In this document: positions 3,943 through 62,828 of the stretch, piece after piece
Layout: each line of letters begins with the position of its first letter
Position numbering within the stretch: position 1 is the first letter of the stretch
Source: Eledone cirrhosa
Taxonomy: Eukaryota
Direction of reading: 5' to 3'
Assembly: GCA_964016885.1 (NCBI GenBank)
Contig: OZ024751.1
Coordinates: 17,608,001 to 17,672,000 of the forward strand
Length of the DNA stretch: 64,000 nt
Notes under the pieces: model-generated
Seen by the model: only the letters and a program-made list of their open reading frames with translations
Databases searched by the model: none
Told to the model about the DNA's origin: nothing
Translations under genes and position numbers: made by a program

Positions 3943-3945
<3 letters not shown>

Positions 3946-4127
3946 CGAAGGAAATGTGGTAAGGAACCAGGTGGACCATAACGCACCAAAGTACTCAATA
4001 CTTAGGGTAGTAGAGTGGGTAATAGGAACGAGTAGGACCCCGACGGCTGAGCTCAAGCCGTTTCGACGGCTAATTCTGAATTCGCCGTCGAAACGGCTTG
4101 AGCTCAGCCGTCGGGGTCCTACTCGTT

Positions 4128-4132
<5 letters not shown>
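3943..4132 (-). mobile_element. Fold-back Penelope-like terminal fragment, family P, with the 3' half of an HHR
   Basis: Perfect 49-bp inverted arms 4022-4070/4084-4132, GAAAC-GGCT-tgagctc-AGCC-GTC motif, (TA)n on both sides. Relatives at 29318, 37460, 55907 and 61846. Confidence 0.75.
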
Positions 4133-5654: not shown

Positions 5655-5693
5655 ATATATATATATATGTATGTATGTATATATATAGAGAGA

Positions 5694-5933
5694 GGAGACT
5701 GAGGTTAGCTGGACATGCTCACCGACATCCAGAGTTGACATTGCACTCAGTGTTCCTTTGGGAGCCCCTCCATGGACATACTAGAAGAGGAAGACCAAGG
5801 TTAATGTATGTTGATGCCCTAAGGACAGACACTGGTCTGTTGGAGTGGCAGGATATGGCGGCGATAATGAGGGACAGAGACCGCTGGAGAGAACTCGTCC
5901 ATGGATCTCGGGAATATTAGCCGCCTTAGAATA

Positions 5934-7714: not shown

Positions 7715-7973
7715 CATACACACACACATAGATTCATATATATATATATACATATACATACATATACATAAACATATATATCCACACACTCATACCCTAC
7801 ATATACACTACATATATATATATATATTTTGAGTTTATGTTGGTTGTATACCAATACCTCAGTGTGCAGGTTGGAGCACTCGACGAAGTTGTCCAGGTTG
7901 GTTTGGTTACTCCGGAGTAGTGTAAAATAAAGTTAAATAAAAGTCAAATGATTAAAATTTAGCTTCGTTTATT

Positions 7974-8028
7974 ACTGCTATATATATTTCAGTGACAGCC
8001 ATCTTTGGCTGTGACCTCTTCAGGCAGT
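7974..8028 (-). ncRNA. Type-I hammerhead ribozyme
   Basis: Reverse complement of 8268-8322. Confidence 0.75.
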
Positions 8029-8267
8029 TTGAATTAGTATGGTATAGACAAGTACATATGTTGTTTAAGTGTATGATATTGTCAATACTCTGATATGCCG
8101 AGTTCCTAGTTGGGTTGTTAATTCACTGAGGAACTGGAGTCATATGACTCATATGACTCCAGTTCCTTAGTGAAATAAGAACCCAACTAGGAAGTTGGCG
8201 TATCAGAGTATTGACAATATTATACACCTAAACAACATATGTACTTGTCTATACCTTACTAATTCAA

Positions 8268-8322
8268 ACTGCCTGAAGAGGTCACAGCCAAAGATGGCTG
8301 TCACTGAAATATATATAGCAGT
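8268..8322 (+). ncRNA. Type-I hammerhead ribozyme
   Basis: actgc-CTGAAGA-ggtcACAGCCaaagatGGCTGTcact-GAAATATATATA-gcagt, followed by AATAAA. Confidence 0.75.
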
Positions 8323-8366
8323 AATAAACGAGGCTAAATTTTAATCATTTGACTTTTATTTGACTT

Positions 8367-8427
<61 letters not shown>

Positions 8428-8431
<4 letters not shown>

Positions 8432-8623
8432 TATGTGTGTATACGTACATACATATATGTATACAGACGTACAATAGCATGCATATATATATATACAGGT
8501 ACACATACATATATGCACGTATCAGTTTAGCGGACGCTTATTATAACGCCGCTTTGTTCGTTTGTAAACAAACTGAACAGCCTGAATTTTATGCCGTACG
8601 GTGTACGTATGTGTACCTGTATG

Positions 8624-8719
<96 letters not shown>

Positions 8720-9149
8720 GGCTACTGTACGTCTGTATACATATATGTATGTACCTATACACACATACTTACATTTAAGTGAGTGCCGTACTAAGAGTGA
8801 GAAATGAAATTTCGTTTTCATTTTATTTCAACTTATCGTTTTCGGTATGCCTGACCGACTTAACTCACTCGATATGCAAATTAGGCTGCTCAGCCGTTAA
8901 TTTTCATAAGGAAAGTATATACTTTCGAACGTTCAACTATCTGGCAGAAGGGTATACGGTGCTGATGATAGCTAACAAGCTTGAAACTAGTACATCGTTC
9001 CTGTGTCAGTGTTGAACAAAAAGGTGACGTGGTTGCCTTAACACCGTACGGCATAAAATCCAGGCTGTTCAGTTTGTTTACAAACGAACAAAGCGGCGTT
9101 ATAATAAGCGTCCGCTAAACTGATACGTGTATATATGTATGTGTACCTG

Positions 9150-9207
<58 letters not shown>

Positions 9208-9321
9208 TGCTACTGTACGTCTGTATACATATATGTATGTACGTATACACACATACTTACATTTAAGTAAGTGCCGTATTAAGAGTGAGAAATGAAATTT
9301 CGTTTTCATTTTATTTCAACT

Positions 9322-9323
<2 letters not shown>
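8428..9323 (+). mobile_element. Retrozyme-like element family R1: 5' inverted segment plus ~1.4 tandem monomers (~488 bp period)
   Basis: 8428-8604 is the reverse complement of 9041-9259, and 8607-8834 repeats at 9137-9323. Internal HHR, (TA)n flanks, homologous to 62210-62825. Confidence 0.8.
8956..8998 (+). ncRNA. Minimal type-I hammerhead ribozyme
   Basis: acggtg-CTGATGA-tAGCTaacaAGCTt-GAAACTAGTA-catcgt. Confidence 0.8.
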
Positions 9324-9376
<53 letters not shown>

Positions 9377-9390
9377 GTATATATATATAC

Positions 9391-9567
<177 letters not shown>

Positions 9568-9805
9568 ATTAGAGATTAGAGCAAACATCACGGGCGCTCT
9601 ATCTCAAAATTCTTTTTGAAATGCATTAGATATGCGCAACCGGTAAAAACTTAAAACGAAAACTGAATACTAACCAATACTTATTACTAATTTATACTTA
9701 TTCCCAATTAAACTATTTTTCACTGGGAAAAATTTGTCAGCATTTTCTTTTCCTTTTACTAATATATCACAACTCGTGTGTTACACCTCTATTTTTTTAA
9801 ATATA

Positions 9806-13807: not shown

Positions 13808-14090
13808 AGCACTGGGATCGATTTAATCGACTTTTTCCCCCGAATGGAAAGGGGAAAGTCGATTAAATCAACCCCAGCGCATTACTGGTACATTATTTTA
13901 TCGACCCCGTAAGGATAAAAGGCAAAGTTAATCTTGGTTCAAATCCCATTGAGGTTAACTTTACTTTTCATCCTTACGGGGTCGATAAGATAAAGTACCA
14001 GTAACGCGCTGATTTTGATTTAATCGACTTTCCCCTCTTCCCTTCAAATTGCTGCCCTTGTGCCTAAAGTAGAAACAATTATTATTATTA
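13808..14090. mobile_element. SINE family A segments in inverted arrangement (hairpin)
   Basis: 13850-13934 is the reverse complement of 13952-14037. Confidence 0.85.
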
Positions 14091-24826: not shown

Positions 24827-25439
24827 CTAGCAGAATGGCCCGGCATTGCTCGGGATTTGCTCTAGTGTTCTTATATATTTGATATATATTTACCCTTATC
24901 GAGCCTCGTGAAATAAATACGTTTGTTTATATTTTGTTATTGTGTATGCAAAATATCTGTACGCGAATATATATATATATATATATATACGTGTGTATAT
25001 ATATTAAAATAACAGATTAAAGTTTAAGCAAAGAATCGCTGATTTCACCCTTAACGGGATCTTCTGAAACTAAAAAAATCAATCTGTGAAGGCAGAAGTA
25101 AATATTTGGAAAAACGTTACACACTATATATATATATACACACACTATATATACATATATACAAACACACACAGATAGCGACATCATAATGACAGATATT
25201 ATAAGGGCGCAACGTTATATCTATGTATCTATCTAAAAAGAAAGACTAAGAATTATAGAGAGAGATCACTAAATCGCCTAATGCGGTCCCTAGATCATTG
25301 AAAATTTGAAATATATTTTGCTCAAAACACTCACAGGGCCATAAGTATTACATGTGTAAAGATTGAAAACAATCGGTTGGGTTGTTCTCGAGTTTTAGGG
25401 AGTCAGACAGACAGACATTCTCTGTTTTAGATATATAGA
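24827..25439 (-). mobile_element. Non-autonomous Helitron
   Basis: Minus strand A|TCTATATATC...CCCGAGCAATGCCGGG hairpin...CTGCTAG|T. This gives a 5' TC, a subterminal hairpin, a 3' CTAG and an AT target. A second Helitron-like 5' end (TCTATATTATAATAA) lies at ~24795. Confidence 0.8.
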
Positions 25440-27179: not shown

Positions 27180-27790
27180 AATCAGCTCCTGCAATCCTTG
27201 TACCTAATCCAGCCCATTGTCTTCTATAAATCGTAAATATAATCCCCAAAATCCTTGAACCTCTCCACCTGCTTCAGTAGAAGGGCAGTCACATTTAGAG
27301 TGCACTGCACAGGCCTCCATAAGAAGATAAGTGTCTCAGTCTTCACAGGATTGGTTTTCAGTGCTGTCGTATAGCACTCGGAGGTAAAGCTATCAGGTGC
27401 CTGTCGAAGATCACCTTCTGACGACTGATGTAATACCATATCGTTTGCAAATTGCAGCCGACTGATTCTACATTCACCAATCCTGATACCACAACGAACC
27501 CGGCTGCGCATGTCAGTCCAGATCACGAAGACTATGGACAAGAGAGATGACAGTACGCAGCCTTCGCAGAGTCCAACGCCTACATTGTATAGTTTCGGCC
27601 TAGCATTATTTATCCGAACAAAATTACTAAGGTATACATAAAGAGACATCAGGGCAACAGGAATCGGTCCATCGATCCCATACTCATCCAGAACCTTCCC
27701 CAAAATGTCCGGCGAAACGCAGTCATATTCTTTTTTTCCAAGTCTAACAAACAAGTAGTACAGTTCATACGAAGCATTGTGAGATGTGTA
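27180..27790 (-). pseudogene. Decayed RTE-clade reverse transcriptase fragment
   Basis: ORF 27224-27754 contains K.YDCV, VGVGLCEGCVLSSLL (GL.QGC.LSP) and LQFANDMVL (FADD). Confidence 0.85.
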
Positions 27791-28475
27791 ATAAAAGACA
27801 AATAATTTTCAAAAAGCCGGAACAATGCGGTAGAAAATATAAGGGGAAACTTATGACAAATAAAATAAAATAAATAATGTTTCACCCAATATATTTCAAC
27901 ATAATATTTCAGGGCTAAAACCCTCTTTTGAAGCAAAAGGAATGATCGATGTGTTCTTCATTAACTGGCTAACGTGTCTTTTTACCTGTTGATGATAATG
28001 GTCTATTTGATTTTTAAATTGATTATATTCCTTCCCGTCACCTCTATGGAAACCTCAATGTTTTGGCAGTGTCATCTGTTTAGATGTTTTTTTTTAAAGA
28101 AGCTCTCGTCGTCATGATTCGTATGTACAACATCTAGATGTATGACCAGCTATGTGTATTTACATCTGACCTTATATAACACATACGCTCTCATGCACAT
28201 TTCTACGTTGTTGATAACATAATTAGGAAGTGACCATATATCGTTTGAAAAGACGGTGGTAGACTTCAAATATCACATTGAAATGTACTTTGTTTTGTTT
28301 TATTTGGAGAGAGATAGAGGGCGGGGGGTAGAAATCTTATAGTGAGGCCCAGCGGTTTCGGCGTAGCTTCCTCTATACCACTCCGCTTCTCCCCATGCAT
28401 AGAATACTCCGCGGATGTGTGGTCTCCCTGCAGAATCTCTCTCTATCTATCTCTCTCTATCTATCTATCTCTATC

Positions 28476-28600: not shown

Positions 28601-29131
28601 ATTGATAAAAAGATTGGAGACCATATTCAGTTGATTGAGGTTTATTTAAAACTCTGTTATATATATTTCACTGAGGACTGTCAGTTATGGTAGCCTCAGC
28701 TCTTCAGACGGCAAAACCTATCACAAACATTGAAAGTTCCTAAGAAACCTGATACAGGAGCCGGCCGTCGAAGAAACAACACCACACGTTCGGCCAGCCC
28801 TCTGTATCATAAAAAGAACATTTTTTTCGGGTAAATTATTGGATTTTTCCAAATTTAAAGGTTTCTAAGGAACTTTCAATGTTTATTTTAGGTTTTGCCG
28901 TCTGAAGAGCTCAGCTTATCATAACTGATAGTCCTCAGTGAAATAATGGAGTATAATGGAGTATTAAATAAGCCTCATTCAACTGAATATGGCCTCCGAT
29001 CTTTTATCAATATATGATGCTCCGACTTGCACCATTTATACAGGTCGTTGAGCGCTTCTTTTTATCTGCTTCACAGACGACTGACCATAATATGGTCCTC
29101 ATATCTCTTTTGGGTTAACCCAATGCTCTAA
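28601..29131 (+). mobile_element. Penelope-like pLTR fragment with 5' inverted arm
   Basis: Arms 28601-28750/28859-29011, HHR motifs in both, (TA)n on both sides. Confidence 0.8.
28654..28711 (-). ncRNA. Type-I hammerhead ribozyme (the plus-arm copy at 28898-28949 has lost stem III)
   Basis: Minus strand: ccgt-CTGAAGA-GCTGAGGctaccataactgacagtCCTCAGT-GAAATATATATA-acag. Confidence 0.65.
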
Positions 29132-29266: not shown

Positions 29267-29373
29267 TATTTTGATTATGTGAATGTCTTCATTTATTAAT
29301 ATTTTGAATAATATTATAGTATTGAGTACTTTGGTGCGTTATGGTCCATCCGGTTCCTTACCACAATTCCTTC

Positions 29374-29436
<63 letters not shown>

Positions 29437-30087
29437 TCAAGCTTTAGCAAATAGGCAAACATTTTAAAAATAAATTAAAAAAAATTTACTGTACTTACTA
29501 TATTTACCCTTACCGCGCGGTTTCAAGTCTCCAAATAAATGGATAATCCATGCGGACCACCATTGAGAAGGAGACTTTCGTCAGAGGGTTCGTCTCACTC
29601 GGAGAATATAACATTCCCGAGTTCAAATCACGAACTGGCGCCATACCGAACTGTTCCAGGATGAGAATGTATGATAAAGAAACAATCTTGTCTAGTGCCG
29701 TGTGTAAAGATAGAAGGCAAGGGCGGAAAGGTCAATGTCCTGCCACTAGAAATAGCAGCAGTTAAAACGACCAAAATGTTATCTCGACCTTAGGGGATTA
29801 ATAATAATAAAGTATGTTTTCCTACCAGCAAAAGATGCCTAACAAATTAACGAGCCAGAACGTAATTTCTATGGACTAAGAGGAAAGACTAGGTAAATTT
29901 TATCTGGCTGTTCCTCACAGAGAAAAGTGTGTAACTTTTATATGTTATTTCTTCTAAGTTACATTTTAAACTTAGCTGCGTTTAAATGATTATTTATCTG
30001 GTTGATAACTACGGCCTAAGGAGCAAAAGTATTGGATAAGTTTTGTGAATGTTCCTCAAACTTATAATTTTATATATATATATTTAT

Positions 30088-31151: not shown

Positions 31152-31196
31152 TTAGGGTTAGCGTTAGGGTTAGGGTTAGGGTTAGGGTTAGGGTTA
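31152..31196 (+). repeat. Interstitial telomeric repeat (TTAGGG)7
   Basis: Seven units, one of them the variant TTAGCG. Confidence 0.85.
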
Positions 31197-31479: not shown

Positions 31480-33762
31480 TAGTACTGGTACTGTTTTTTT
31501 TCTTTATCGAACTCGAACGGATGAATGACAAAGGCGACCTTGGCGGTATTTGAACTTATTACCCAGAGAGCCAGGGCGGATACTGCAAACCCATAAGAGA
31601 AAGATGTAGTACTGGTACTGTTCTTTCTTTATCGAACTCGAAAGAATGAAGGACAAAGTTGACCTAGGCGATATTTGAACTTAGTACGAAGAGGGCCGGA
31701 CTGGATACCACCAAGTCATTAATCTGACGTTCTAACAACTCTAATTTACCGCCTCAAAATATGGTGTGGACCATACACCAACAGCAAAGGAGATTAAAGT
31801 CGAGATCAGTCCGACTTGTTCCAATAATAGTGTATCAAGAACAAGATTATCCAATATCACCTTCCTTATAATTAATTGTTTCTACTTTAGGCACAAGGCC
31901 AGCAAATACCCAGTGTATTACTGGTACTTTATTTTATCGACCCCCCTAAGGATGAAAGGCAAAGTAAACCTCGGCGGGATTTGAACTCAGACTGTAAAGG
32001 GACATAACTATATCACCTTCCTTATAATTAATGGTTTCTTATATAGACACAATCCACAATCCACCCTCCATGGTTGTATCTAAATAGTCGTTTCTGGTTT
32101 AGGCACAAGGCCAACATATTTTGGGAGAAAAGGAAAGTCGATAAAATCGACCTCAGTGCATTACTGGTGCTTAATTTTGTTGAACCTGTAAAGATGAACG
32201 GCAAAGCTAACAAAGCGGTATTTGAACGCAGAACGTAAAGGACCATAACTTTATGCCGTATAGCATATAGTCCAAATATCTACCGATGCTGACAATTCAC
32301 CACCCATGGTTATATTTAAATATTGGTTTCTAACTTAGACACAAGGTCAACAATTTTGTGGGAGGGGGAAATTTGATTAAATCGACCCCATTGTATTACT
32401 GGTACTTTATTTTATCGACCCCGTAAGGATGAAAGGCAAAGTTAACATTCGCGAAATTTAAACGCAGAACGTAAAGGGCCATAACTATATGCCACAAAGC
32501 ATATGGTCCGAAGATCTACGGATACTGCCAATCGTTGTATGTAAATAGTGGTTTCTGGTTTATGCACAAGGCCAACATTTTTTGGGGAAAGGGAAAGTCG
32601 ATTAAATTGACCCCAGTGCGTTACTGGTACTTTATTTTATCGACCCCGTATGGATGAAAGACAGCTAACATTTTCGGGATTGAACGCAAAGGGCCATAAC
32701 TATATGCCGCAAAGCATATAGTCCAAAGATGTACCGATACAGCCAATACACCGCCCTATTGTACTTAAATAACAGTTTCTTATATAGGCCATCAATTTTG
32801 TGGGAGGGGAAAGTGGATTAAATCGAGCCCAGTGCATCACTGGTACTTTATTTTATCGACCCCGTAAGGAGGAAAGACAAAGTTAAACTCGGCGGGATTT
32901 GAACTCAGTTTAATTAAATAATTGCTTCTACTTTTGGCACAAGGCCAGTAATTACCCAGTGTATTACTGGTACTTTATTTTATCGACCCCGTAACGATGA
33001 AAGACAAAGTTAAACTCGGCGGGATTTGAACTCCGACCATAAAAGTCCGTAACTACATGCTGCAAAGCATATTGTCCGACGCTCTACCGATTTTACCAAT
33101 CCATCGCCCTGTTGTACTTAAATAATTGTTTCTTATATAGGCACAAGGCCAGTAATTTGGGGAGAGGGGAAAGTCGATAAAACCGACCCCAGTGCGTGAC
33201 TGGTACTTTATTTTATCGACCCTGTAAGGATGAAAGGCAAAGTTAACCTCGGCGAGATTTGAACTCAGAACGGAAAGAGTCGTAACTCTATGCTACGAAG
33301 CATGGTGTCCGACGCTCCACCGATTCTACCAACCCACCGCCCTGTTGTACTTAAATAATAAAGAGTGAGGAAGGTAGAGTGCATTACTGGTACTTTATTT
33401 TATCGACCCCGTAAGGATGAAAGGCAAAGTTAACCTCGGCGAGATTTGAACTCAGAACGGAAAGAGTCGTAACTCTATGCTACGTACGAAGCATGGTGTC
33501 CGACGCTCCACCGATTCTACCAACCCACCGCCCTGTTGTACTTAAATAATAAAGGGTATAGGAAGGTAGAGTGCATTACTGGTACTTTATTTTATCGACC
33601 CCGTAAGGATGAAAGGCAAAGTTAACCTCGGCGAGATTTGAACTCAGAACGGAAAGAGTCGTAACTCTATGCTACGTACGAAGCATGGTGTCCGACGCTC
33701 CACCGATTCTACCAACCCACCGCCCTGTTGTACTTAAATAATAAAGAGTGAGGAAGGTAGAG
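31480..33762 (-). mobile_element. Head-to-tail array of ~11 SINE family A copies
   Basis: All in the same orientation with a shared spacer GTTGTAYYTAAATA; the last three ~190-bp units are near-identical. Confidence 0.9.
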
Positions 33763-36361: not shown

Positions 36362-36726
36362 AATCGTATTTTGCGGTTAAATGAAAAATATTCCTGTCAA
36401 TTCAAGGTTGATTGTGAAAATTACAAAAAATGAACTCAGCACGCGCCGTCACTTATTTACGTCAGAAACGCGCACGCGCTCGCAAACACACATGCGCACT
36501 GATGAACACAAACACACACACAGCCACAAGCTCCCCTTTACAGCGTCTCATGTAGTTACGTTGTGTAACTCCTCCATAACGTCTCAATTGTCTTAGTCTA
36601 TCCAACACTTTGATAAAACTCTCTTACTCTTTCCATCAGATCCATCTCACCATTACATCTGCGATTCGTCTTCTTCTACATATAGTACCTTACGCCTCTC
36701 TATCCGATTTTCTGCATTATTTGTCG

Positions 36727-36913
36727 CGGTGGATTGGCAGTATCGGTAGAGGGTCGGACGCCATGCTTTCCAGCATAGTTACGTCCCTTTACGATCTGAG
36801 TTCAAATCCCGCCGAGGTTGACTTTGCCTTTCATCCTTACGGGGTCGATAAAATAAAGTACCAGTAATGCACTGGATAATTGCTGGCCTTGTGCCTAAAG
36901 TAGAAACAATTAT
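36727..36913 (+). mobile_element. SINE family A, near-consensus copy
   Basis: Full head to ATT tail, flanked by the direct repeat attatttgtcg. Confidence 0.9.
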
Positions 36914-37157
36914 TTGTCGGCCATTTTCTTTTCCGTATCTCTTCAAGATATACTAGAATCTTTCTCTAGGTAAATTTAGTTTGGGGTAAATATTAGTTAG
37001 TTAAACTAATAATAATCAAAGTTCAATTTTAAAAGACACACACACACACGCACACACACACACACATGTGTATATATATATATCATCATCGTCATCATTT
37101 TACGTCCGCTTTTTCCCTGCTAACTCTTATTTCCTTTGCTCTTTCTTCGGAATTACC

Positions 37158-37460: not shown

Positions 37461-37631
37461 ATATTGGAAAAGAGTCAGGACCCCGACGGCTGAGCTCTGG
37501 CTGTTTCGACAGCTAGATTGAGCTGTCGAAACCCTCGGATATCAGCCATCCGGGTCGGCTCTTTTCCTATTATCCACTATACTATTCTAAGTTATGGCCA
37601 ACCTGGTATCTTTCTTACCACACCCTCTTTG

Positions 37632-37635
<4 letters not shown>
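37461..37635 (+). mobile_element. Fold-back element family P (diverged)
   Basis: TTTCGACAGCT-agattg-AGCTGTCGAAA centre; 3' end cttaccacaccctctttgtta before (TA)n. Confidence 0.65.
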
Positions 37636-37703
<68 letters not shown>

Positions 37704-37897
37704 AGGTATATGATTATCCTGGATGCAGTAATGGTTAATTACTACACTGGATAGAGTTGACGTACGGTGAGGGGTTACTCAACGAGTTATGGAAGAATAG
37801 TTGAAGAAACTCAGTTTCTGATCCTTCTGTATTCCGGAGTGTAGATAAAGAATGAATAATAACAGGTAGACATCATAAAAAGGTAATTTATTCTGTG

Positions 37898-38009
37898 TGC
37901 TTACAAATGTTTCCACAGTGGTTATACAGCCTAGTTATGCTATGTGAAAATGTATAACTATTTGCAAAACTCAATTATCAAATGCTGTGACGACTGTATC
38001 CTCAGAGCA
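37898..38009 (-). ncRNA. Hammerhead ribozyme in the PLE 3' pLTR, 85-nt stem II region
   Basis: Minus strand: tgct-CTGAGGA-tacag...ctgtg-GAAACATTTGTA-agca, followed by AATAAA. Confidence 0.75.
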
Positions 38010-38306
38010 GAATGGTTAAAATGTAAAATGTAAATACCCTTAGGTGAGGTTATTGGGGAAGATAGAGTAGAAAAGGAAGAGAGAAAGAAGGGGAGAGGGA
38101 GAGAGAGAGACATGCAGGGGTTGGAGAAATGGGAGAGAGTGGTTTGTAGAATACAGATATCTTAATCAAACTGTTGTGGTAGGGGTTTTATTATACTGGT
38201 TACTGTTAAAGCGACAACCTTAAGCAATGCGTTGATAGTTAAGGTTGGAATTATTTATTGCCACAGAGGGCAAGTTCATAGATGTGGAGAGGGAGGGAGG
38301 TGGCCC

Positions 38307-38356
<50 letters not shown>

Positions 38357-38601
38357 AATGGCGAGAGAGGGCGAGATAGAGAGAGAACAGACGAAAGCTA
38401 TGGGATGGGTGTACATTGAGTTCATAGTTGTAGGCTACAAATTGCACTAAGTATCCATTTATAGTGATAAGCAGGGTATTGTCTTGTAGTGTGGGGGATA
38501 TAGTTAAGAAGTTGTTATTGAGAGAAAGTAGTTAGCTAGAAAGCAATGTTATAATTACGGGTTCAAATGTTAAGTTATTTTATAGTGGGAGAATTTAGCC
38601 T

Positions 38602-39471
38602 TCAGTTTTGGTTGCAGTATAGTGATCGTTCGATTCTGTCATTTAGTAATTTATTTTTGGATTTTAAGATGTAAAAGAGTTCAAGTTTACATAACCTGCA
38701 GTATTTCAATCCACACCGATATGCACTAGTGCTGGAAAGTATATCCCATTTCAAGGTGAACTGTTGGTTGCGTTCACGGAGTTTCCAGGTCTTGTTGGCG
38801 AGCGTGTTCACAAAACGGTGATTAGGATGTTTAATTGAGAATCGATGACGATACCAGCGAGATTTAAAGGAGGTAGTGGTAGACTCGATGTAATACCATT
38901 TCTGGTCGTTCGATTCAACAGTGCATTGATAAACAATGTTGTACATTAGGCATTTATTCTTCAATGGACATCTTTCAGGTAGGTGGCAGTTGCAGTTTTT
39001 ATTGTGGGTAGCGGGTATACCATGGATAGGTTGGGATAGCAGTACAGGTCGGTTGTGTAATACCCGTCTCCCATTTAGTGGTTGGGAAGCTGATACTACG
39101 TTATGCTCATCTGTTATTAAAATATTTTGTTTTGTAGTGTTGTTTAATTGCTTTAAGTTAAGTTTTTTTATGTATGCTTCAAGGTTTGGTGCAGTGGAGT
39201 ATGATAGCTTAATAGTCTTAGAGTTCACAATTTCACTGTATTTATGGGAACTAGGGAAATACTTGTTGATTAACTTAAAGAATGAAAGAGATAGTTTTGT
39301 ACTAATCGAAGCATTAAAAATGGGATTATACCAGATATACTTTCTACAACGTGATTTATTTGGTGATGATTTTCTATTATTAGTATGTCTGGTGGTACTG
39401 CGTGTGTGCGCTTGTATTTCTGTACCCCGGTTACGTATTCTTTGATTTCGTGTTATGTAGATTCTTATCAA
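38602..39471 (-). pseudogene. PLE linker and GIY-YIG endonuclease domain
   Basis: IWYNPIFN, KLSYS..PNL, CNC-x5-CP-x4-C, IVY...YIEST..FKSRWYRH, LKWDIL, CRLCKLE, LLNDR. YIG is altered to YIE. Confidence 0.9.
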
Positions 39472-39514
39472 TGTATTCTATTGTATCCCGGTGGTCGGCA
39501 TTCCTTAATGCATT

Positions 39515-39687
39515 TGGATTGGCAGTATCGGTAGAGGGTCGGACGCCATAGTTACGTCCCTTTACGATCTGAGTTCAAATCCAGCCGAGGTTGACTTTGC
39601 CTTTCATCCTTACGGGGTCAATAAAATAAAGTACCAGTAATGCACTGGGGAATTGCTGGCCTTGTGCCTAAAGTAGAAACAATTATT
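39515..39687 (+). mobile_element. SINE family A inserted into the PLE ORF
   Basis: Removing it restores AEYYN-NALRNA; ATT at both junctions. Confidence 0.9.
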
Positions 39688-40675
39688 ATAGTATTCAGCA
39701 TGTTCACTGAAAATCTCAGAGTTAGACGATAGGCGAGAGATTCTAAGCGAAATAATACTACGGGGAACCGATTTGATCATGGAAAGTCGGTGGTTTGAGT
39801 TAAAATTGATATAGGTAAGGTTCTCATTTATCTTGTGGAAGGGTCCTATGTGTCCGGTATTTAAATTAAGAGTTACGTCTAGAAAATTTACTACTTTAAG
39901 ATTGTATTCGTACGTTATTTTTAGAACCAGTTCACTAAAATATTTTCTAATGTTTTTCCGTAGACTTTCAAGATTTTGGTTATTTAAGTTATTAACTAAA
40001 AAGAGCCCGTCATCTCTATATATTCCCTCCTGTAGATTACTAAATTTTCCATGTAGTATGTGGGCTATGTAAATTCCCACAAGATCGGTGACCTCCGCTG
40101 AGTCGTTGGAGCCCATGGTAATGTCGAAGTTTGTGGGTCTGTCCTTACGTTCCCAGTAGCAGTTATTAAACTTGATAATAGTTTTTTCTAGCCTCTAGAA
40201 TAATGTTTATTTCGTCCTCCGCTAGGTCGGAATTGACTTTGGCAAACGATAGGGCCTTACGTAGAGTGCTGGGTGAGATTGAAGAGTAGTATTCGTCTAT
40301 GTCAAATTGTGTAAACTTAGATTTATTTATGTTCTTAACGTTATTAAGCCAGCGAATTGCTTCGCTATTTAATTTCTATTTTCTTTTTCAATTGAGTTAT
40401 TACTCTGTCAAGTATATGTTTGCTAATTTTTCCTATGTCTGATTTAGAAGGGCATACAAGTCTAATCTTAGGGTTAGAGTAAAAATTTACCTTATGGTCC
40501 TTCAGGTTAAAGGCGGGGGTTGCGGGTATAATCGGCTCGGTTGAATCGTCTATCTTGATATTCTTCACCACATTGTATGCCTCGTTATTAATATTTGCTA
40601 GCGTAGTTTCACTTGTTTTTCTATATTTCTTGTGTAGTTCTTTGCCTATGAAGCTGTTGTATGTATCGATATCTA
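39688..40675 (-). pseudogene. PLE reverse transcriptase (frameshifted)
   Basis: LKDHK.NF..NPKIRLVCPSKSDIGKISK, QFDIDEYYSSI, FDITMGSNDSAEVTDLVG, GIYRDDGL, VNFLDVTLNL. Confidence 0.92.
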
Positions 40676-40801
40676 ATGTATCGATATCTAATAGTTATAA
40701 ATTTGCACATAGCATAACTAGGCTGTATAACCACCGTGGAAACATTTGTAAGCACACAGAATAAATTACCTTTTTATGATGTCTACCTGTTATTATTCAT
40801 T

Positions 40802-40865
<64 letters not shown>

Positions 40866-41376: not shown

Positions 41377-41436
<60 letters not shown>

Positions 41437-41439
41437 CAT

Positions 41440-41700
41440 TAAATGTAATCTGAGTTTTTCGAATGTTAATAACATTCGATTCGTTTGCAATTATGCAAAC
41501 CAGCCTCAATTTTATAGCCATGTCAGTAGAATGAACCCTTCATTCTTGCTCTTGTGTTGGCATTCTACTGACATAGCTATAAAATTGAGACATGTTTGCA
41601 TAATCGCAAACGAATCGAATGTTATTATTAATATTCGAAAAACTCAGATTACATTTATTGTATTCAGCCATGTAGAGCAAAATTTTCTTTTTTGTTTATA
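41440..41700 (+). mobile_element. Fold-back (TA)n-flanked element
   Basis: Inverted arms 41440-41533/41561-41657 plus a short 3' extension; no intact HHR core seen. Confidence 0.7.
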
Positions 41701-47514: not shown

Positions 47515-48223
47515 TATAAATTAATATGTATGTGATGAAACACAGATACCAACACATCTGTATATATATTGCGAAAGAAAAATTTAGCCAGATTGAAGTA
47601 TACTAATTATTATACTACAGTTTGTCCATATCGATTTAAAATAATAAATCAACGGAGACGAACTGTGTTGGCAAAAGGCCGTGATGTTTAGACACATTTA
47701 AATTTCAAAATCAAACCTGTTCCGTAGATAAGTTTAGACTTTAAGGTCCAAATATGTTTCGAGTTAAATAAGTGTAGGAATATCATGTCCCGCTCTCCTC
47801 AGTAAACATCCAGAGACAAATTGATATGCTTCACTTCTAAATAATTTAAAAGACTGCGTGGCGCACATGGCTTTACAGTATCTAACTAGTCTCATAACCG
47901 TACTGCTAGAAATAACAGTCGTGTATATGAGGCGGCTTTGCAGCTCAAACTAGGAGCAGATTAAAATTAATAAGGTAATGAATTCTTTTACAATGGAATC
48001 AGCTCGAATGAGGAAAAAATATCCCCTGAGCAGTGTATAAATTAATATGTATGTGATGAAACACAGATACCAACACATCTGTATATATATTGCGAAAGAA
48101 AAATTTAGCCAGATTGAAAGTATACTAATATATATACAGATGTGTTGGTATCTGTGTTTCATCACATACATATTAATTTATACACTGCTCAGGGGATATT
48201 TTTTCCTCATTCGAGCTGATTCC

Positions 48224-48226
<3 letters not shown>
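47515..48226 (-). mobile_element. Retrozyme-like element R2: 521-bp monomer, terminal direct repeat and 5' inversion
   Basis: 47515-47607 repeats at 48036-48129, and 48129-48226 is the reverse complement of 47992-48089. Internal HHR, (TA)n flanks. Confidence 0.8.
47732..47807 (-). ncRNA. Type-I hammerhead ribozyme
   Basis: Minus strand: gttta-CTGAGGA-GAG...CTC-GAAAC-atatttggaccttaaa-GTC-taaac. Confidence 0.75.
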
Positions 48227-48458: not shown

Positions 48459-48462
<4 letters not shown>

Positions 48463-48752
48463 ATAATAATAAATTTGAAGACTAAAATCCAAAGAGGGCT
48501 CGATAAGGATAAATATATATCAGATATATAAGAACCGTAGAGTAAATAATGACGTATTATATTCGTTTTTTCCCGTTCTTTGCCAGGGAACGTTTCCACG
48601 AACCAAAGTATCGTCTTCCTGTCTTCCTCCGGTTGCAACGTTTTTTGAAATATTCACTTCTGCGTTTACAGATTGACTTTGTTAGTTTCAGAAGATCCCG
48701 TAAAGGCTGAAAGCAGCGATTCTTTGCTTAAACTTTAATCTGTTATTTTAAT
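48459..48752. mobile_element. (TA)n-embedded repeat family D
   Basis: Both ends are shared with the internally deleted copy at 60340-60477. The right end also occurs inverted at ~25002-25118. Confidence 0.7.
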
Positions 48753-49115: not shown

Positions 49116-49647
49116 CAGCGGTTGCCAATTTTTCGGACCTCACGGACCACAAGATTCATAATTTTAAATCCCGCGGACCACTAATATCAATTAATGGTCA
49201 ATGGACGAAACAATACTGAAGTGTACGAGTGTCATATTGTCGATAGATGATACATATATGTAAAATTCTTTCATGGATGGATGTTAGTTCTTTACTGTGG
49301 AGAAACATTTTTAGCGGGGTTATAATATATATTTTAACAAAATATTATTTTTGTTTTAAAATAGAAATAGATGCTTTCGCCGTATTTTTGACTCAAGAAA
49401 TTTTACACTGATAGCGGAGTTTAGAACCCTCTAAAAAATGGAAAAAGATGAGTATTAGAGGGTTCTAACCCGACTATCGGGCTAAAATTTCTTTAGTCAA
49501 ATATACGGCGAAGGTTTCTATTTCTATTTTCAAACTCGCTCGCTGTTTCAAAACAGACTTAGCCGTTATTTTTGTTATTTTTAAGAAGACATAACATTTT
49601 CAAATAATGCCCAGAGTTTTTTGCGGACCACTGGTTTGCGACAGCTG
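49116..49647. mobile_element. hAT MITE containing an internal ~175-bp palindrome (49357-49530)
   Basis: TIRs CAGCGGTTGCCAA / TTGCGACAGCTG; 8-bp TSD ctatacag/ctatactg. Confidence 0.7.
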
Positions 49648-50309: not shown

Positions 50310-51471
50310 ACAGACAACAATAACAAATTTCCCAATAACTAGAAACAACAAGAACTACAATAACAACAATAACAACAACAACAAAAAACAACAACAGCCA
50401 TTGTATAGAAGAAAAACAGCTGCAACAACAAATATAATCATCAATGCGAACAGCAACAAATAGACCAATCAGTAATGACTATAGACATATCCAAAACCTT
50501 CATAAAAACCAGCAACAATAACACAGCTACCATCATAGGAGCAATATCAACTGTAACATCATCCTCATCAATATAACAATAGCAACAACAAAACAACATT
50601 AACACTGCAATAATAGTAACAACAACATCATCAAAACAGCAATATCAAAGCCAATTGAAGAAGCATTAACAATAACTACGTTGACTTCAAAATCACTAAC
50701 AATAAATACGATTAAAAACACACAAAAGTAACATCACCGACGACAATAATAAGAGCAACATAAACTAGCTTACTAACAATTACAGCAGCACAAACATCGC
50801 CAATACAACGACATCAACAACAAGGACAACAACATCACAACAGTAACCTCGTTAATAATGAGAAGAACGACAAGAACAACAACAACAATAAAAGCAACAA
50901 CATCACAACAGTAGCAACATCAACAATAGTAAGGACAACATGAACAACAACATCAAAACAGTAGCAACATCAACAATAGTAAGGACAACATGAACAACAA
51001 CATCACAACAGTAGACACATCAATAATAGTAAAGACAACAACTATAACAACAACATCACAACAGTAGACACATCAACAATAGTAAGGACAACATGAACAA
51101 CAACATCACAACAGTAGCCACATCAACAATAGTAAGGACAACAACAACAACAACATCACAACAGTAGCCACATCAACAATAGTAAGGACAACAACAACAA
51201 CAACATCACAACATTAGCCACATCAACAATAGTAAGGACAACAACAACAACATCGCAACAGTAACACCATCAACAACAACAGTAACATCACAACAGTAAC
51301 ACTAACAACAACAACAGTAACATCACAACAGTAACATCACAACAGTAACCGCAACAACAACAACAGTAACATCACAACAGTAACAACAACAACAGTAACA
51401 TCACAACAGTAACAACAACAGTAACATCACAACAGTAACACCAACAACAACAACAGTAACATCACAACAGT

Positions 51472-51520
<49 letters not shown>

Positions 51521-52030
51521 GTAACATCACAACAGTAACGCTAACAACAACAACAGTAACATCACAACAGTAGACACATCAATAATAGTAAAGACAACAA
51601 CTATAACAACAACATCACAACAGTAGACACATCAACAATAGTAAGGACAACATGAACAACAACATCACAACAGTAGCCACATCAACAATAGTAAGGACAA
51701 CAACAACAACAACATCACAACAGTAGCCACATCAACAATAGTAAGGACAACAACAACAACAACATCACAACATTAGCCACATCAACAATAGTAAGGACAA
51801 CAACAACAACATCGCAACAGTAACACCATCAACAACAACAGTAACATCACAACAGTAACACTAACAACAACAACAGTAACATCACAACAGTAACATCACA
51901 ACAGTAACCGCAACAACAACAACAGTAACATCACAACAGTAACAACAACAACAGTAACATCACAACAGTAACAACAACAGTAACATCACAACAGTAACAC
52001 CAACAACAACAACAGTAACATCACAACAGT

Positions 52031-52094
<64 letters not shown>

Positions 52095-52604
52095 GTAACA
52101 TCACAACAGTAACGCTAACAACAACAACAGTAACATCACAACAGTAGACACATCAATAATAGTAAAGACAACAACTATAACAACAACATCACAACAGTAG
52201 ACACATCAGCAATAGTAAGGACAACATGAACAACAACATCACAACAGTAGCCACATCAACAATAGTAAGGACAACAACAACAACAACATCACAACAGTAG
52301 CCACATCAACAATAGTAAGGACAACAACAACAACAACATCACAACATTAGCCACATCAACAATAGTAAGGACAACAACAACAACATCGCAACAGTAACAC
52401 CATCAACAACAACAGTAACATCACAACAGTAACACTAACAACAACAACAGTAACATCACAACAGTAACATCACAACAGTAACCGCAACAACAACAACAGT
52501 AACATCACAACAGTAACAACAACAACAGTAACATCAAAACAGTAACAACAACAGTAACATCACAACAGTAACACCAACAACAACAACAGTAACATCACAA
52601 CAGT

Positions 52605-52647
<43 letters not shown>

Positions 52648-54020
52648 GTAACATCACAACAGTAACACTAACAACAACAACAGTAACATCACAACAGTAA
52701 CACTAACAAAAACGGTAACCTAACAACAGTAACACTAACAACAACAGTAACATCACAACAGTAACACTAACAACAATAGTAACATCACAACAGCAACACT
52801 AACAATAGCAACAGTAACATCACAACAGTTACACTAACAAAAAACAACATAACATCACAACAATAACACTAACAACAACAGTAACATCATAACAGTAACA
52901 CTAACAACAACAGTAACATCACGGCAGTAACCCTAACAACAACAGTAACACTAACAACAACAGTAACATCACAACAGTAACACTAACAACAACAACAGAA
53001 ACATCACGGCAGTAACACTAACAACAACAACAGTAACATCACAACAGTAACACTAACAACAACAGTAACATCACGGCAGTAACACTAACAACAACAACAG
53101 TAACATCACAACAGTAACACTAACAACAACAGTAACATCACGGCAGTAACACTAACAACAACAGTAAAACTAACAACAACAGTAACATCACAACAGTAAC
53201 ACTAACAACAACAACAGAAACATCACGGCAGTAACACTAACAACAACAACAGTAACATCACAACAGTAACACTAACAACAACAACAGAAACATCACGGCA
53301 GTAACACTAACAACAACAACAGTAACATCACAACAGTAACACTAACAACAACAACAGAAACATCACGGCAGTAACACTAACAACAACAACAGTAACATCA
53401 CAACAGTAACACTAACAACAACAGTAACATCACGGCAGTAACCCTAACAACAACAGTAACACTAACAACAACAGTAACATCACAACAGTAACACTAACAA
53501 CAACAACAGAAACATCACTGGAGTAACACTAACAACAACAACAGTAACATCACAACAGTAACACTAACAACAACAGTAACATCACGGCAGTAACCCTAAC
53601 AACAACAGTAACACTAACAACAACAGTAACATCACAACAGTAACACTAACAACAACAACAGAAACATCACGGCAGTAACACTAACAACAACAACAGTAAC
53701 ATCACAACAGTAACACTAACAACAACAGTAACATCACGGCAGTAACACTAACAACAACAGTAAAACTAACAACAACAGTAACATCACAACAGTAACACTA
53801 ACAACAACAACAGAAACATCACGGCAGTAACACTAACAACAACAACAGTAACATCACACCAGTAACACTAACAACAACAACAGTAACATCACAACAGTAA
53901 CACCATCAACAAGAAATACATTACCACAACAAGGCCAGCAGTTTCAACGACGTAATCACAACAACGTTACAATCACAACAACATCAAGTCCACCACCACC
54001 CACATAACAACAACTGTAAC
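50310..54020. repeat. 3.7-kb (CAA)-derived minisatellite with higher-order repeats
   Basis: Units GTAACATCACAACA and GTAACACTAACAACAACA. A ~560-575 bp block is present three times (markers at 51012, 51571, 52145). Stops in all frames. Confidence 0.92.
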
Positions 54021-55351: not shown

Positions 55352-55396
55352 TAAATATATATTTATATATATATATATTTCTAGGGGGGGGGGGGT

Positions 55397-55808
55397 AAAA
55401 TTCCCGAGATCCATGGACGAGTTCCCTCCAAATGTCTCTGTCCCTCATTATCGGTGCTATGTCCTGCGTCTCCAACAGACCAGTGTCTGTCGTTAGGGCA
55501 TCAACATACGTTAACCTCGTTCTACCTCTTCCAGTGTGTCCATGCATGGCCTCCCACAGGAGCACTGAGTGCAATGTCAACTCTGGATGTCGGTGAGCAT
55601 GTCCGGCTAACCTCAGCCTCCTCTGCATCACTTATGAGCTGACTTTTGGGAGGCTCCCATACAGCTCTGAGTTTTTCATCCTCAGTGTATACTGATTAAT
55701 GTCACAGAGCCATCCTCAGCATTCTCGTGTAGCACCCATCCACCATCTGATTGGGTTTCTTGGTCAGTGTCCAAGTCTCAGACCCGTACAGCAGCACAGA
55801 CACCACTA
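55397..55808 (-). mobile_element. RTE-clade LINE 3' fragment
   Basis: SVLLYGSETWTLTK..DGCYTRMLRMAL and [14 protein letters not shown]...RGRTRLTYVD. Confidence 0.88.
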
Positions 55809-55823
55809 CACACACACACACAG

Positions 55824-55906
<83 letters not shown>

Positions 55907-55908
<2 letters not shown>

Positions 55909-56094
55909 AAGGAATTGTGCTAAGGAACCAGATGTACCATAACGCCCCAGAGTACTCGATCCTTAGGGTAGTAGAGTGGGAAATAGGAAAAAGTATGACC
56001 CCGACCGCAGAGCTCAAGCCGTTTCGACGGTTATTTCCAAAAATAGTCGTCGAAGCGGCTTGAGCTCTGTCGTCGGGGTCATACTTTTTCCTAT
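55907..56094 (-). mobile_element. Fold-back element family P
   Basis: Inverted arms ~55983-56036/56041-56094; homologous to 3943-4132. Confidence 0.75.
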
Positions 56095-56464: not shown

Positions 56465-56627
<163 letters not shown>

Positions 56628-56700
56628 ACATTATGAAGAGAGAAGAAACATTTAGATATAATTAGTAATAAAATGTATCATACCTAAACTGCTCCTAAAT

Positions 56701-56790
56701 TCCTCGACTACGTAGTTTCGTGGCATAAACAAAAACAATATATCATAAAGATATAGAGTCCCTGCGAGGTCTGCCGACTTATCAAGAGGA
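56701..56790 (-). ncRNA. Hammerhead ribozyme, U3-A8 core variant
   Basis: Minus strand: TCCTC-TTGATAA-GTcGGCA...TGCCAC-GAAACTACGTAGTC-GAGGA. Confidence 0.75.
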
Positions 56791-57295
56791 TACCTCATTT
56801 TACTAGTCTCAAGAACGCGTCTACACGACGTGAGAAAGAATCCCAAAAGGCGGAGGGGGAGATAGTCACGCGATATAACGGTCGAGAAACAGAGCTAAGC
56901 CTCTTATAACCACGAAGAAAATACCACGGAGGCGGAGGGGGTATTCATATCGAGGCCGCAGAAGAAGTGGTGAAGAAGGCTAGAAGTATGAGTAATGGAA
57001 GCTTTCCAGTTGTCCCCACACTTCAAAGATTGCTCGACCAGAGGGAGTTATTAACAATATATTTAGAAACACACAGATACATGCGGACACACACATATAT
57101 ACATGAATGCATCCGCACCCAACTGTGAGTTAAGGGTGCCAACTTCACCGATGTTGCTCAATGAATGACCGGGACAGACCAATTCAGTTGAACCAGACTG
57201 AACCAGTATCAGAGTTAAAAATACATTATGAAGAGAGAAGAAACATTTAGATATAATTAGTAATAAAATGTATCATACCTAAACTGCTCCTAAAT

Positions 57296-57385
57296 TCCTC
57301 GACTACGTAGTTTCGTGGCATAAACAAAAACAATATATCATAAAGATATAGAGTCCCTGCGAGGTCTGCCGACTTATCAAGAGGA
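57296..57385 (-). ncRNA. Hammerhead ribozyme, U3-A8 core variant (second copy)
   Basis: Identical to 56701-56790, offset by 595. Confidence 0.75.
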
Positions 57386-57813
57386 TACCTCATTTTACTA
57401 GTCTCAAGAACGCGTCTACACGACGTGAGAAAGAATCCCAAAAGGCGGAGGGGGAGATAGTCACGCGATATAACGGTCGAGAAACAGAGCTAAGCCTCTT
57501 ATAACCACGAAGAAAATACCACGGAGGCGGAGGGGGTATTCATATCGAGGCCGCAGAAGAGGTGGTGAAGAAGGCTAGAAGTATGAGTAATGGAAGCTTT
57601 CCAGTTGTCTCCACACTTCAAAGATTGCTCGACCAGAGGGAGTTATTAACAATATATTTAGAAACACACAGATACATGCGGACACACACATATATACATG
57701 AATGCATCCGCACCCAACTGTGAGTATGTATATATATATATATATATATACATATATATACATCCGCACCCAACTATGTATGTATATATATATATATATA
57801 TACATATATATAC

Positions 57814-60275: not shown

Positions 60276-60343
<68 letters not shown>

Positions 60344-60470
60344 ATAATAATAAATTTGAAGACTAAAATCCAAATTTGATGAATAAGGATAAATATATAT
60401 CAAATATATAAGAATCGTAGAGCAAATAAGGGCGAAAGCAGCGATTCTTTGCTTAAACTTTAATCTGTTA

Positions 60471-60583
<113 letters not shown>

Positions 60584-61311: not shown

Positions 61312-61389
<78 letters not shown>

Positions 61390-61392
<3 letters not shown>

Positions 61393-61742
61393 ATAGAAAA
61401 CGAATAATCAGTGATGAATCTGAACTCAATTTATTGTGTGTTCCAATTGTTTCGCCGGCGGACAGCTCGAGGCGCGTGGATATCATTGTGTGGATATCAG
61501 TGAGAGTGACAGAATATGCTCCGAAATCATTAGACGTGTCCGTCGAACCTGCGGGTCCAGAATCAAACAGATCCACACAATGATCGCGTCTCGAGCTGTC
61601 CGCCGGCGAAACAATTGTAACACACAAAAATTGAGTTCAGAAGCATCACTGATTTTTCGTTTTCTATTACATCATACTATTCTCTGTAAGAGCATAGAGT
61701 GCTCAACCGGCATACCGCCTATGGAAGCATCTTAGCTACCAT
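61390..61742 (+). mobile_element. Penelope-like pLTR fragment with 5' inverted arm and decayed HHR (61536-61623)
   Basis: Arms 61390-61498/61570-61668; gtgt-CCGTCGA-acctgcgg...ccgccggc-GAAACAATTGTA-acac. Confidence 0.7.
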
Positions 61743-61767: not shown

Positions 61768-61849
<82 letters not shown>

Positions 61850-61923
61850 CACACTCTACTATCCTAAGTATTGAGTACTCTGGTGCGTTACGGTTCATCT
61901 GGTTCCTTACCACAATTCCTTCG

Positions 61924-61998
<75 letters not shown>

Positions 61999-62209: not shown

Positions 62210-62825
62210 TGTTATAATAAATGTTCGTTATAATAAATGTTCGGGGAATCCATACGTACATATATATATGTGTGCATGTATGTATATATATATACATACT
62301 ACTGTATGTATGTATACATATATGTATGTACGTTTACATACTTATATTTAAGTAACAGCCGTACTAAGAGTGGGAAATGAAATTTCGTTTCATTTTTTCC
62401 GTTTATCGTTTTCGGTGCACCCGGTCGATTAACCAACTGGATATGCAAATTGGGCAACTCAGCCGTTAATATGCATAAGGTAAGTATATACGTTTAACAA
62501 TCTGGCAGGAAGGTATACGTTGCTGACGATAGCTAATGAACTTGAAACTAGTACAGCGTTCCTCTGTCAGTGTTGAACAAACGAGCAACGATGGTTGCTA
62601 GACACTACGGCTTAATACGGGATGTTTGTTTACAAACACACCGAGCGTTATAATAAATGTTCGGTGAATCCATACGTACATATATATATGTGTGCATGTA
62701 TGTATATATATATACATACTACTGTATGTCTGTATACATATATGTATGTACGTGTACATACTTATATTTAAGAAACAGCCGTACTAAGAGTGGGAAATGA
62801 AATTCGTTTCATTTTTTCCGTTTAT
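62210..62825 (+). mobile_element. Retrozyme-like element family R1: 420-bp monomer, ~1.4 copies
   Basis: 62226-62406 repeats at 62646-62825; homologous to 8607-9323 with the same 3' boundary. Confidence 0.82.
62517..62559 (+). ncRNA. Minimal type-I hammerhead ribozyme
   Basis: acgttg-CTGACGA-tagctaatgaactt-GAAACTAGTA-cagcgt. Confidence 0.75.
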
Positions 62826-62828
62826 ATA

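Follow-up and report, generated by a model that had tools for sequence, protein, structure and literature searches.

A hammerhead-bearing repeat of Eledone cirrhosa at TA microsatellites, likely mobilised by a Penelope-like element

The window analysed here, a 64,000-nt stretch of the Eledone cirrhosa genome (contig OZ024751.1, positions 17,608,001 to 17,672,000), contains at 8430-9323 a repeat, R1, that lies between TA tracts and carries further TA inside. The locus raises the questions of what kind of element this is, which machinery inserted it, and whether its internal TA feeds the TA richness of the surrounding DNA. An initial annotation rightly recognised a retrozyme-like, TA-targeted element; it missed that the anatomy is a Penelope-like signature and that a TA-targeting Penelope-like element (PLE) of the Hydra clade is present in the window too. 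The reading that we consider likely is that R1 is a non-autonomous element of the non-LTR-retrozyme kind, inserted by the RT-endonuclease of a TA-targeting PLE, most likely of the Hydra clade. By the best reading R1 is, provisionally, a new, PLE-mobilised family; its membership among the retrozymes depends on arrays elsewhere.

Copy 1 begins next to a (TA)29 tract (8372-8429), the upstream part of the target, which is common to the 5' side of R1 and the 3' end of a neighbouring element, R2. It opens with an inverted, 5'-truncated arm of 175 nt (8430-8604, minus strand), the reverse complement of unit positions 9041-9258 (of 162 aligned non-TA positions, 3 are mismatched); the arm's outer (3') end falls 65 nt before the main 3' end is reached, and it has no tail. 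Two nucleotides (8605-8606) that can be assigned to neither arm form the head-to-head junction, adjoining an 8-nt palindrome at the arm end. The direct part (8607-9323, plus strand) amounts to 1.38 units: a 5'-truncated, pseudo-LTR-like partial unit (8607-8835), which is a direct repeat of 9137-9323, and a full non-coding monomer of 488 nt (8836-9323). The period is 488 nt when the 3' ends are aligned (8835 versus 9323) and 530 nt when measured over the longer first TA tract. The layout first proposed, an inverted 5' segment head-to-head with 1.4 units of a 488-nt monomer, is thus borne out, as is the variable length of the internal (TA)n, which comprises 13, 89 and 51 nt of perfect TA in the inverted arm (8483-8495), the partial unit (8628-8716) and the full monomer (9154-9204), respectively.

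Within the full monomer, a type I hammerhead with an extended helix I is found at 8931-9017 (plus strand), with its core motif at 8956-8998 and a predicted cut at 8992/8993. It is followed by a long self-complementary hairpin of alternating purines and pyrimidines (9123-9246), with the 51-nt TA tract at its tip, and by the 65-nt tail between the two 3' termini (9259-9323), which includes a terminal hairpin at about 9283-9322. The downstream (TA)n tract (9325-9567), the other part of the target, adjoins the 3' end. Both termini of copy 1 (9258 and 9323), like that of the second copy described below, are TTA ends beside small hairpins, and these 3' termini meet TA tracts with an overlap of 2-3 nt. 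The unit 8836-9323 shows no sign of coding, as its frames of at least 25 aa are short or TA-derived. In particular, no ORF for RT plus GIY-YIG lies between the repeats. R1 is not an autonomous PLE.

The second copy, at 62211-62826 (plus strand), belongs to another subfamily, with a period of 420 nt, a 181-nt direct repeat and a hammerhead at 62517-62559. It has about 1.4 units, a 16-nt stutter at the 5' end and two 12-nt TA tracts, and lacks an inverted arm; a TA tract lies upstream and a TA/CT tract downstream. Its 3' terminus falls at the same position as that of copy 1. The match between the two loci had previously been described for the 3' end; it is indeed found there, but it is not limited to the 3' end and spans the whole unit. 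The conserved ribozyme pattern of R1 occurs exactly twice in the window, even allowing 3 mismatches, and the sample discussed here is therefore two copies with five arms, all from one 64-kb window. Both units (488 and 420 nt) are low in GC (about 0.2-0.3 in the kilobases that hold them), non-coding and without LTR, in agreement with the short-unit criterion of non-LTR retrozymes.

Are these two loci separate insertions, or one old insertion that was later multiplied? Over the segment common to the four direct arms, mismatches within a locus are few (4/119 in copy 1, 3/111 in copy 2), while 12-14 of 110-111 positions differ between copies; in the single-copy parts the figure is 53/291. Divergence is thus about 2-3% within a locus and 11-18% between loci, and the masked flanks share short low-complexity matches only. 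Unrelated flanks and the grouping of arms within each locus argue for independent insertions; a segmental duplication, which the initial annotation had named as the finding that would speak against it, would have made the two first arms the closest pair and is ruled out on the same grounds. The two loci are best regarded as separate insertions from two subfamilies, of similar age judging from the divergence of their arms. The proposal of a dispersed retrozyme-like family is supported. Palindromic microsatellites are abundant in the region and could promote fold-back, so that local DNA rearrangement of a single old insertion, by slippage or fold-back, deserves mention together with duplication. 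Such an origin is highly improbable, given that the arms cluster by locus rather than by tandem position, that the 3' ends coincide while the 5' ends differ, and that inversions with a one-sided tail recur in unrelated families of the window.

The ribozyme itself provides further clues. In copy 1 all core positions of the hammerhead at exactly 8956-8998 are intact, with cleavage predicted after 8992; the core is intact and helix I kept in copy 2 as well. A single hammerhead at this site had been noted before, under the label 'minimal'; the site is correct, whereas the label is not, as the helix layout is canonical type I. Helix I has 6 bp, an internal loop and a long distal extension; helix II is short (2-3 bp plus a U-U base; a weak 2 bp in copy 2); and helix III is palindromic, with 1-2 bp and a self-complementary hexamer. 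The minimal hammerhead of PLEs, as described by Cervera (2014, PMC4209133), has a helix II of 7-8 bp, a helix I of 4-5 bp and no helix III; R1 was considered as such a form and rejected on account of its 6-bp helix I with extension, its 2-3 bp helix II with U-U, and its palindromic helix III. By the definitions given in that paper, the R1 ribozyme, as folded here, is of the canonical metazoan type I form that would need a dimer.

A descriptor scan finds four hammerheads in the window, compared with a mean of 0.03 in 30 dinucleotide shuffles. The gathering score of Rfam is reached nowhere in the whole window, the hammerhead match at R1 being only HH9 with 17.6 bits (E 0.47). Rfam miRNA matches at 7800-9600 were rejected as products of TA runs and palindromes. 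The R1 hammerhead pattern does not occur in the bacterial and archaeal genomes searched, as expected for an animal repeat. Between the two copies, three predicted pairs of helix I (alignment columns 96-182) differ and all still pair; the fold z-score of this helix is -3.4 in copy 1 and -1.8 in copy 2, and the monomeric active fold of copy 1 comes to +0.3 kcal/mol. Since alternating TA can pair with itself, no weight is given to the strong z-scores of the circular-monomer folds (-10.5 and -4.8). The TA-tipped hairpin has at least 24 bp of alternating purines and pyrimidines, with the internal TA run at its tip. Its arms are 84-93% identical between the copies, versus 66% for the adjacent variable segment, and six one-sided differences all keep pairing. 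With two sequences of self-pairing, low-complexity DNA and a structure predicted from both, this is suggestive only of a hairpin conserved as a structure.

Which machinery leaves such copies? PLEs are known for partial tandems, inverted 5'-truncated copies, a tail at one end, and microsatellite targets (PMC8557442, PMC3846280). R1 shows the partial tandem with pseudo-LTR, the 5' truncation and the fixed 3' end in both copies, and the inverted 5'-truncated arm with a one-sided tail in one of the two (copy 1 only); its tail of 65 nt compares with 30-40 nt for published PLE tails. Any target-site duplication is masked by the position of the outer ends within TA tracts, a limit that PMC8557442 states for PLEs as well. 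In vitro work with a PLE protein shows that AT-rich DNA is nicked on both strands and that both are extended (PMC11167929); the protein starts at two internal RNA sites 3' of the hammerhead, and the gap between them is the tail. Copy 1 fits this two-start scheme, with the short arm running from 9258, the long arm from 9323, and the 65-nt tail between.

On this model, the endonuclease would nick a (TA)n tract, and reverse transcription would begin inside the RNA at either of two TTA sites beside small hairpins, each start using TA microhomology of 2-3 nt. The long arm would stem from priming on one strand and the short inverted arm from priming on the opposite one, after which the arms would be joined at their 5' ends. 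As for the template, the distance from the ribozyme cut site to the fixed start 3' of it is 331 nt in copy 1 and 273 nt in copy 2; neither insert shows a scar where it crosses the cut site, and both run past their own start. From this it follows that the template was not a linear cut monomer; with a fixed start 3' of the cut site, such a molecule could yield only a ribozyme-free fragment. The template may have been a ligated circle, an uncut tandem transcript, or the product of a template jump between molecules. Circular RNAs are known for other retrozymes (PMC7229834), and uncut RNA is the main template for the Anolis element PAc in vitro (PMC11167929). All three 5' ends of R1 lie 49-145 nt 3' of a cut-site position and none reaches through a second ribozyme, a sample too small (n=3) to be decisive. 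With 1.4 units and one ribozyme each, both copies fall below the two-ribozyme criterion for 'active' elements of Li et al.; because of this single hammerhead they are probably dead-end offspring of a tandem master elsewhere.

The same anatomy could be accommodated if R1 were the pseudo-LTR, that is the 3' end, of a longer autonomous PLE inserted repeatedly as truncated partial tandems. Most genomic PLE hammerheads are single motifs in truncated copies (PMC4209133), and the anatomy of R1 is fully PLE-like. An autonomous tandem would, however, show a period of at least 2 kb, whereas the unit closes at 488 and 420 nt in the two loci without an ORF remnant between the repeats, and in both subfamilies the 3' terminus runs straight into the pre-hammerhead segment. 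This origin is improbable.

LINE machinery also yields 5' inversion together with 5' truncation, and R1 might accordingly be viewed as a SINE-like element moved by a LINE and inverted via twin priming. The window contains a LINE RT-like remnant (RVT_1, E 1e-4, at 27227-27808), and TAA-targeting LINEs are known. Yet R1 has neither a poly(A) nor a templated repeat tail; its inverted arm repeats sequence that the direct arm already has, and begins at a distance of 65 nt from the main 3' end instead of extending upstream of it; and none of the 58 alignment ends of the window's abundant SINE lies at a TA locus. Inserts of more than one unit with a type I hammerhead suit PLEs. We regard a LINE-driven origin as quite improbable, and the Penelope-like reading is retained in what follows.

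This preferred reading calls for a helper. A broken element of the Hydra clade, not part of R1, is present at 37700-40804 (minus strand), with RT, a CxCX5C linker and a C-terminal endonuclease region. It is flanked by TA tracts at both ends and has a tail-less inverted arm (40690-40804) and a 148-nt tail; its frame is broken, and a SINE fragment lies inside near 39515-39690. Scans of its 3' region detected no intact hammerhead. Its RT motifs align by eye with the Hydra alignment of PMC8557442, where a CxCX5C linker is named for this clade. At E<=0.001 the RT piece retrieves 3815 relatives, two of which, both full-length, are also matched by the C-terminal ORF (E 7e-37 and 3e-32). Pfam names neither the PLE ORFs of the window nor five of their full-length relatives, and two word-index protein searches with the endonuclease ORF returned nothing, so that the Hydra call rests on the by-eye comparison of motifs with the published alignment. 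The element is the kind of helper that R1 would need.

A direct sequence link between the two was sought at the 3' end of this element, where similarity to R1 is not detectable and scores are at shuffle level. Similarity above shuffles is likewise absent between R1 and R2, a further family (R3), and the elements near 28, 47 and 56 kb, and none of six R1 motifs is found in the consensus supplement of PMC8557442 by exact matching, in which line breaks can hide matches. Given the missing similarity to the Hydra 3' end and the Pfam and word-index results, the helper class is one that we infer. Target preference is compatible with it: in PMC8557442 a bias towards (TA)n is described for Naiad and Hydra elements, and 26 of 27 Hydra rows list (TA)n. 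This preference fits a dependence of R1 on the Hydra clade and is not exclusive to it, since Naiads share it. Hydra hammerheads are canonical, and by our own count 14 of 25 tabulated there have a U-U base of helix II (11 of these 14 from one host), a feature also seen in R1; they lie mostly about 100-200 nt from the 3' end, versus about 310-370 nt in R1. Hydra and Naiad families with (TA)n targets are recorded for Octopus (PMC8557442), and recently active PLE insertions for O. vulgaris (PMC13282606). The frequent SINE of the window and its overall repeat make-up would suit an octopus genome.

Several other repeats in the window have related layouts. R2 (7829-8371) is a head-to-head palindrome with arms 95% identical and a hammerhead in each (cores at 8273, plus, and 8023, minus); one arm has a tail of about 95 nt, and TA tracts lie at both ends, the (TA)29 being common with R1. 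Like R1, both R2 and the Hydra element combine an inverted arm with a tail on one side and TA at the ends. One 8-mer occurs in the window only at 7909-7918 and 37833-37840, a few bases into the tails of R2 and the Hydra element; situated just past the short-arm ends, it is possibly a shared recognition site, the overall alignment of these ends being not above shuffles. At 56626-57725 (minus strand), a very young tandem of 1.85 units of 595 nt, 99.6% identical and with a short 5' stutter, lies between TA tracts; it carries two type I hammerheads, in which the core is of the U3-A8 variant and the helix II region is very long. It meets the two-ribozyme criterion for retrozymes better than R1 does. 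Being unrelated to R1, nearly identical between units and equipped with two hammerheads, it indicates that longer products and recent activity exist in the window.

A palindromic element beside a TA tract at 28601-29011 has a PLE-type minimal hammerhead (core at 28902, plus strand, no helix III), and at 29436-29700 (minus strand) a type I hammerhead (core at 29584, minus) with a GC-rich palindromic helix III is found about 150 nt from a TA tract. The element at 47515-48225 lies between TA tracts and combines an inverted arm with a partial tandem whose period is about 521; it has the layout of R1 on the opposite strand, with only a decayed hammerhead-like core discernible by eye. The R3 family comprises five short TA-flanked copies with a common end (3945-4129, 29318-29377, 37463-37632, 55906-56094 and 61848-61924); no hammerhead was found in these five, and three have a fold-back hairpin. 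Another TA-flanked family is represented at 48460-48750, 60341-60475 and 24855-25121, the copy at 60341 resembling an internally deleted form of that at 48460. Imperfect palindromes of 180-290 nt at 41434-41663, 49353-49535 and 61388-61672, two of which abut TA tracts, are MITE-like at first sight.

Repeats of other kinds are present as well. A SINE-like repeat of about 190 nt is abundant, with a tandem cluster at 31480-33762, about 20 dispersed sites such as 36726-36915, and a fold-back at 13842-14083; it never occurs at TA tracts and served as a control. LINE-like remnants comprise 27224-27808 (minus strand), with its weak RVT_1 match (E 1e-4), and two related 235-nt fragments resembling 3' ends that adjoin TA tracts (5691-5925 and 55390-55624). 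A 3-kb AAC-rich minisatellite with a period of 35-50 extends over 50811-53912, and an interstitial telomere-type hexamer repeat of 7.5 copies is found at 31152-31196.

The second question concerns TA. Targeting by R1, as first proposed, is confirmed in that all four outer ends abut TA or TA/CT tracts, three within 3 nt of the tract and one 19 nt from a tract of at least 5 units. In a wider count, 7 of 8 element ends lie within 10 nt of a TA locus, compared with a background of 3.5%, although the TA boundary itself was used to place two of the eight (R2 left, Hydra main), which therefore do not count as independent; the SINE control gives 0 of 58 alignment ends. The internal tract also proves to be a part of the unit, as it is present in 5/5 arms with 12-89 nt at the tip of the conserved hairpin.

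From here the initial annotation had gone further, proposing a feedback in which the internal TA is the element's preferred target, new copies make new landing sites, and the loop could contribute to the TA richness. In two arms the internal tract, at 51 and 89 nt, does equal flanking target tracts in length; the birth of microsatellites inside retroelements is established (PMC3812793), and a secondary Penelope insertion in a simple-repeat-rich segment of another Penelope has been described (PMC3846280). R1 therefore does carry its target sequence internally, but a role of the tracts as landing sites is not supported in this window: none of the five holds an insertion. Nor do they contribute much to the extreme TA content, accounting for 178 of the 4327 perfect-TA bases in the window (about 4%); counted as merged TA loci, they are 7 of 108, with 197 of 4937 bases.

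The comparison with other elements points in the same direction. Fourteen were chosen by eye, either because they show inverted, tandem or ribozyme anatomy or because they belong to such a family, which makes the selection biased; among them only the two R1 copies have an internal TA tract; a tract of at least 5 units is absent from all 12 others, which implies that TA targeting needs no internal tract. In this same biased list, ends of the elements abut 21 of the 108 TA loci, and where R1 and R2 are piled up beside each other it is an external TA tract that is used. The feedback is thus an unlikely explanation, if not a negligible one. The internal tract is better described as a length-unstable passenger; with it, each insertion brings in 2-3 TA tracts, which supply little of the TA in the window. 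Its length changes during or after insertion. A short tract as the ancestral state was considered and dropped, since growth of the tract in two arms is no more and no less parsimonious than its shrinkage in the inverted arm. A simpler route to more TA loci would be the splitting of existing tracts by insertion. There is also a more ambitious scenario, in which R1 would be a circular hammerhead RNA copied for more than one lap by a Hydra-type protein, with a functional (UA)n hairpin that binds or guides targeting, or becomes a target itself, and so feeds the element's own sites and the TA load of the host; we hold it to be doubtful.

So far, the mobilisation of animal retrozymes by PLEs has been argued from co-occurrence and pLTR similarity (PMC7229834; bioRxiv 10.64898/2026.07.22.740005). 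R1 adds a retrozyme-type unit that bears an insertion footprint, namely a fixed internal start, a one-sided tail, an inverted arm and a TA target. It crosses its own ribozyme site, and does so in a window where a Hydra-type element is present, along with three or more further repeat families that carry hammerheads. The Eledone cirrhosa genome is therefore a good place for counting such footprints and for testing circular against uncut-tandem templates. A caution for annotators is that PLEs, and not MITEs, account for many of the TA-flanked palindromes here. A microsatellite feedback would matter more if true; the evidence of the window does not support it.

Among known systems, the closest in overall design are the metazoan non-LTR retrozymes (Cervera and de la Pena 2020, PMC7229834; Li, Clavereau and Pollet 2026, bioRxiv 10.64898/2026.07.22.740005), with which R1 has in common a short, low-GC, non-coding unit, a type I hammerhead and the lack of an LTR. 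Retrozymes have been proposed in both papers to move by PLEs via circular RNA, with solo and partial copies as offspring, and Li et al. argue that they are non-autonomous PLE derivatives. R1 differs in having 1.4 units and one ribozyme instead of at least two, and its unit of 420-488 nt is at the upper end of the described range of 150-450, which extends up to 970 in Li et al. Apparently specific to R1, relative to retrozymes as described in these sources, are the targeting of TA microsatellites, the inverted arm with a one-sided tail, and the internal TA hairpin. The literature searched contained no cephalopod retrozyme and no retrozyme with an internal target tract, and the text of Li et al. 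names no mollusc among its 35 species; the family may already have an entry in Repbase or Dfam.

Like R1, elements of the Hydra clade (Craig et al. 2021, PMC8557442), including Hydra-1_Obim, have (TA)n targets and a hammerhead upstream of a fixed 3' terminus, and as described there a short, palindromic helix III and, in many cases, a U-U base of helix II are found in their hammerheads too. For one member, Penelope-13_HM, a 5'-truncated inverted copy is noted, as in R1 copy 1. Unlike them, R1 has no ORF, no sequence link that could be found, and a hammerhead farther from the 3' end. The Poseidon element PAc of Anolis (Frangieh et al. 2024, PMC11167929) resembles R1 in its two internal starts past the hammerhead, which give rise to a tail, and in its AT-rich target, where it extends both strands; it differs in being autonomous and in having its starts in a stem-loop that is rich in AC, about 85-90 nt past the cut. 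Chlamys PLEs such as MRC1 (PMC8557442) are, like R1, non-coding PLE derivatives with pseudo-LTRs and head-to-tail insertions. According to the same source, however, they are green-algal, generally lack canonical hammerheads and resemble their helpers at the 3' end. Finally, the proto-microsatellites of Alu and L1 (Grandi and An 2013, PMC3812793) likewise consist of an internal short repeat whose length shifts after insertion; the repeat inside Alu or L1 does not double as a target for the element itself, whereas the internal dinucleotide of R1 is that of its target. The one mild oddity of R1 is its TA-tipped hairpin.
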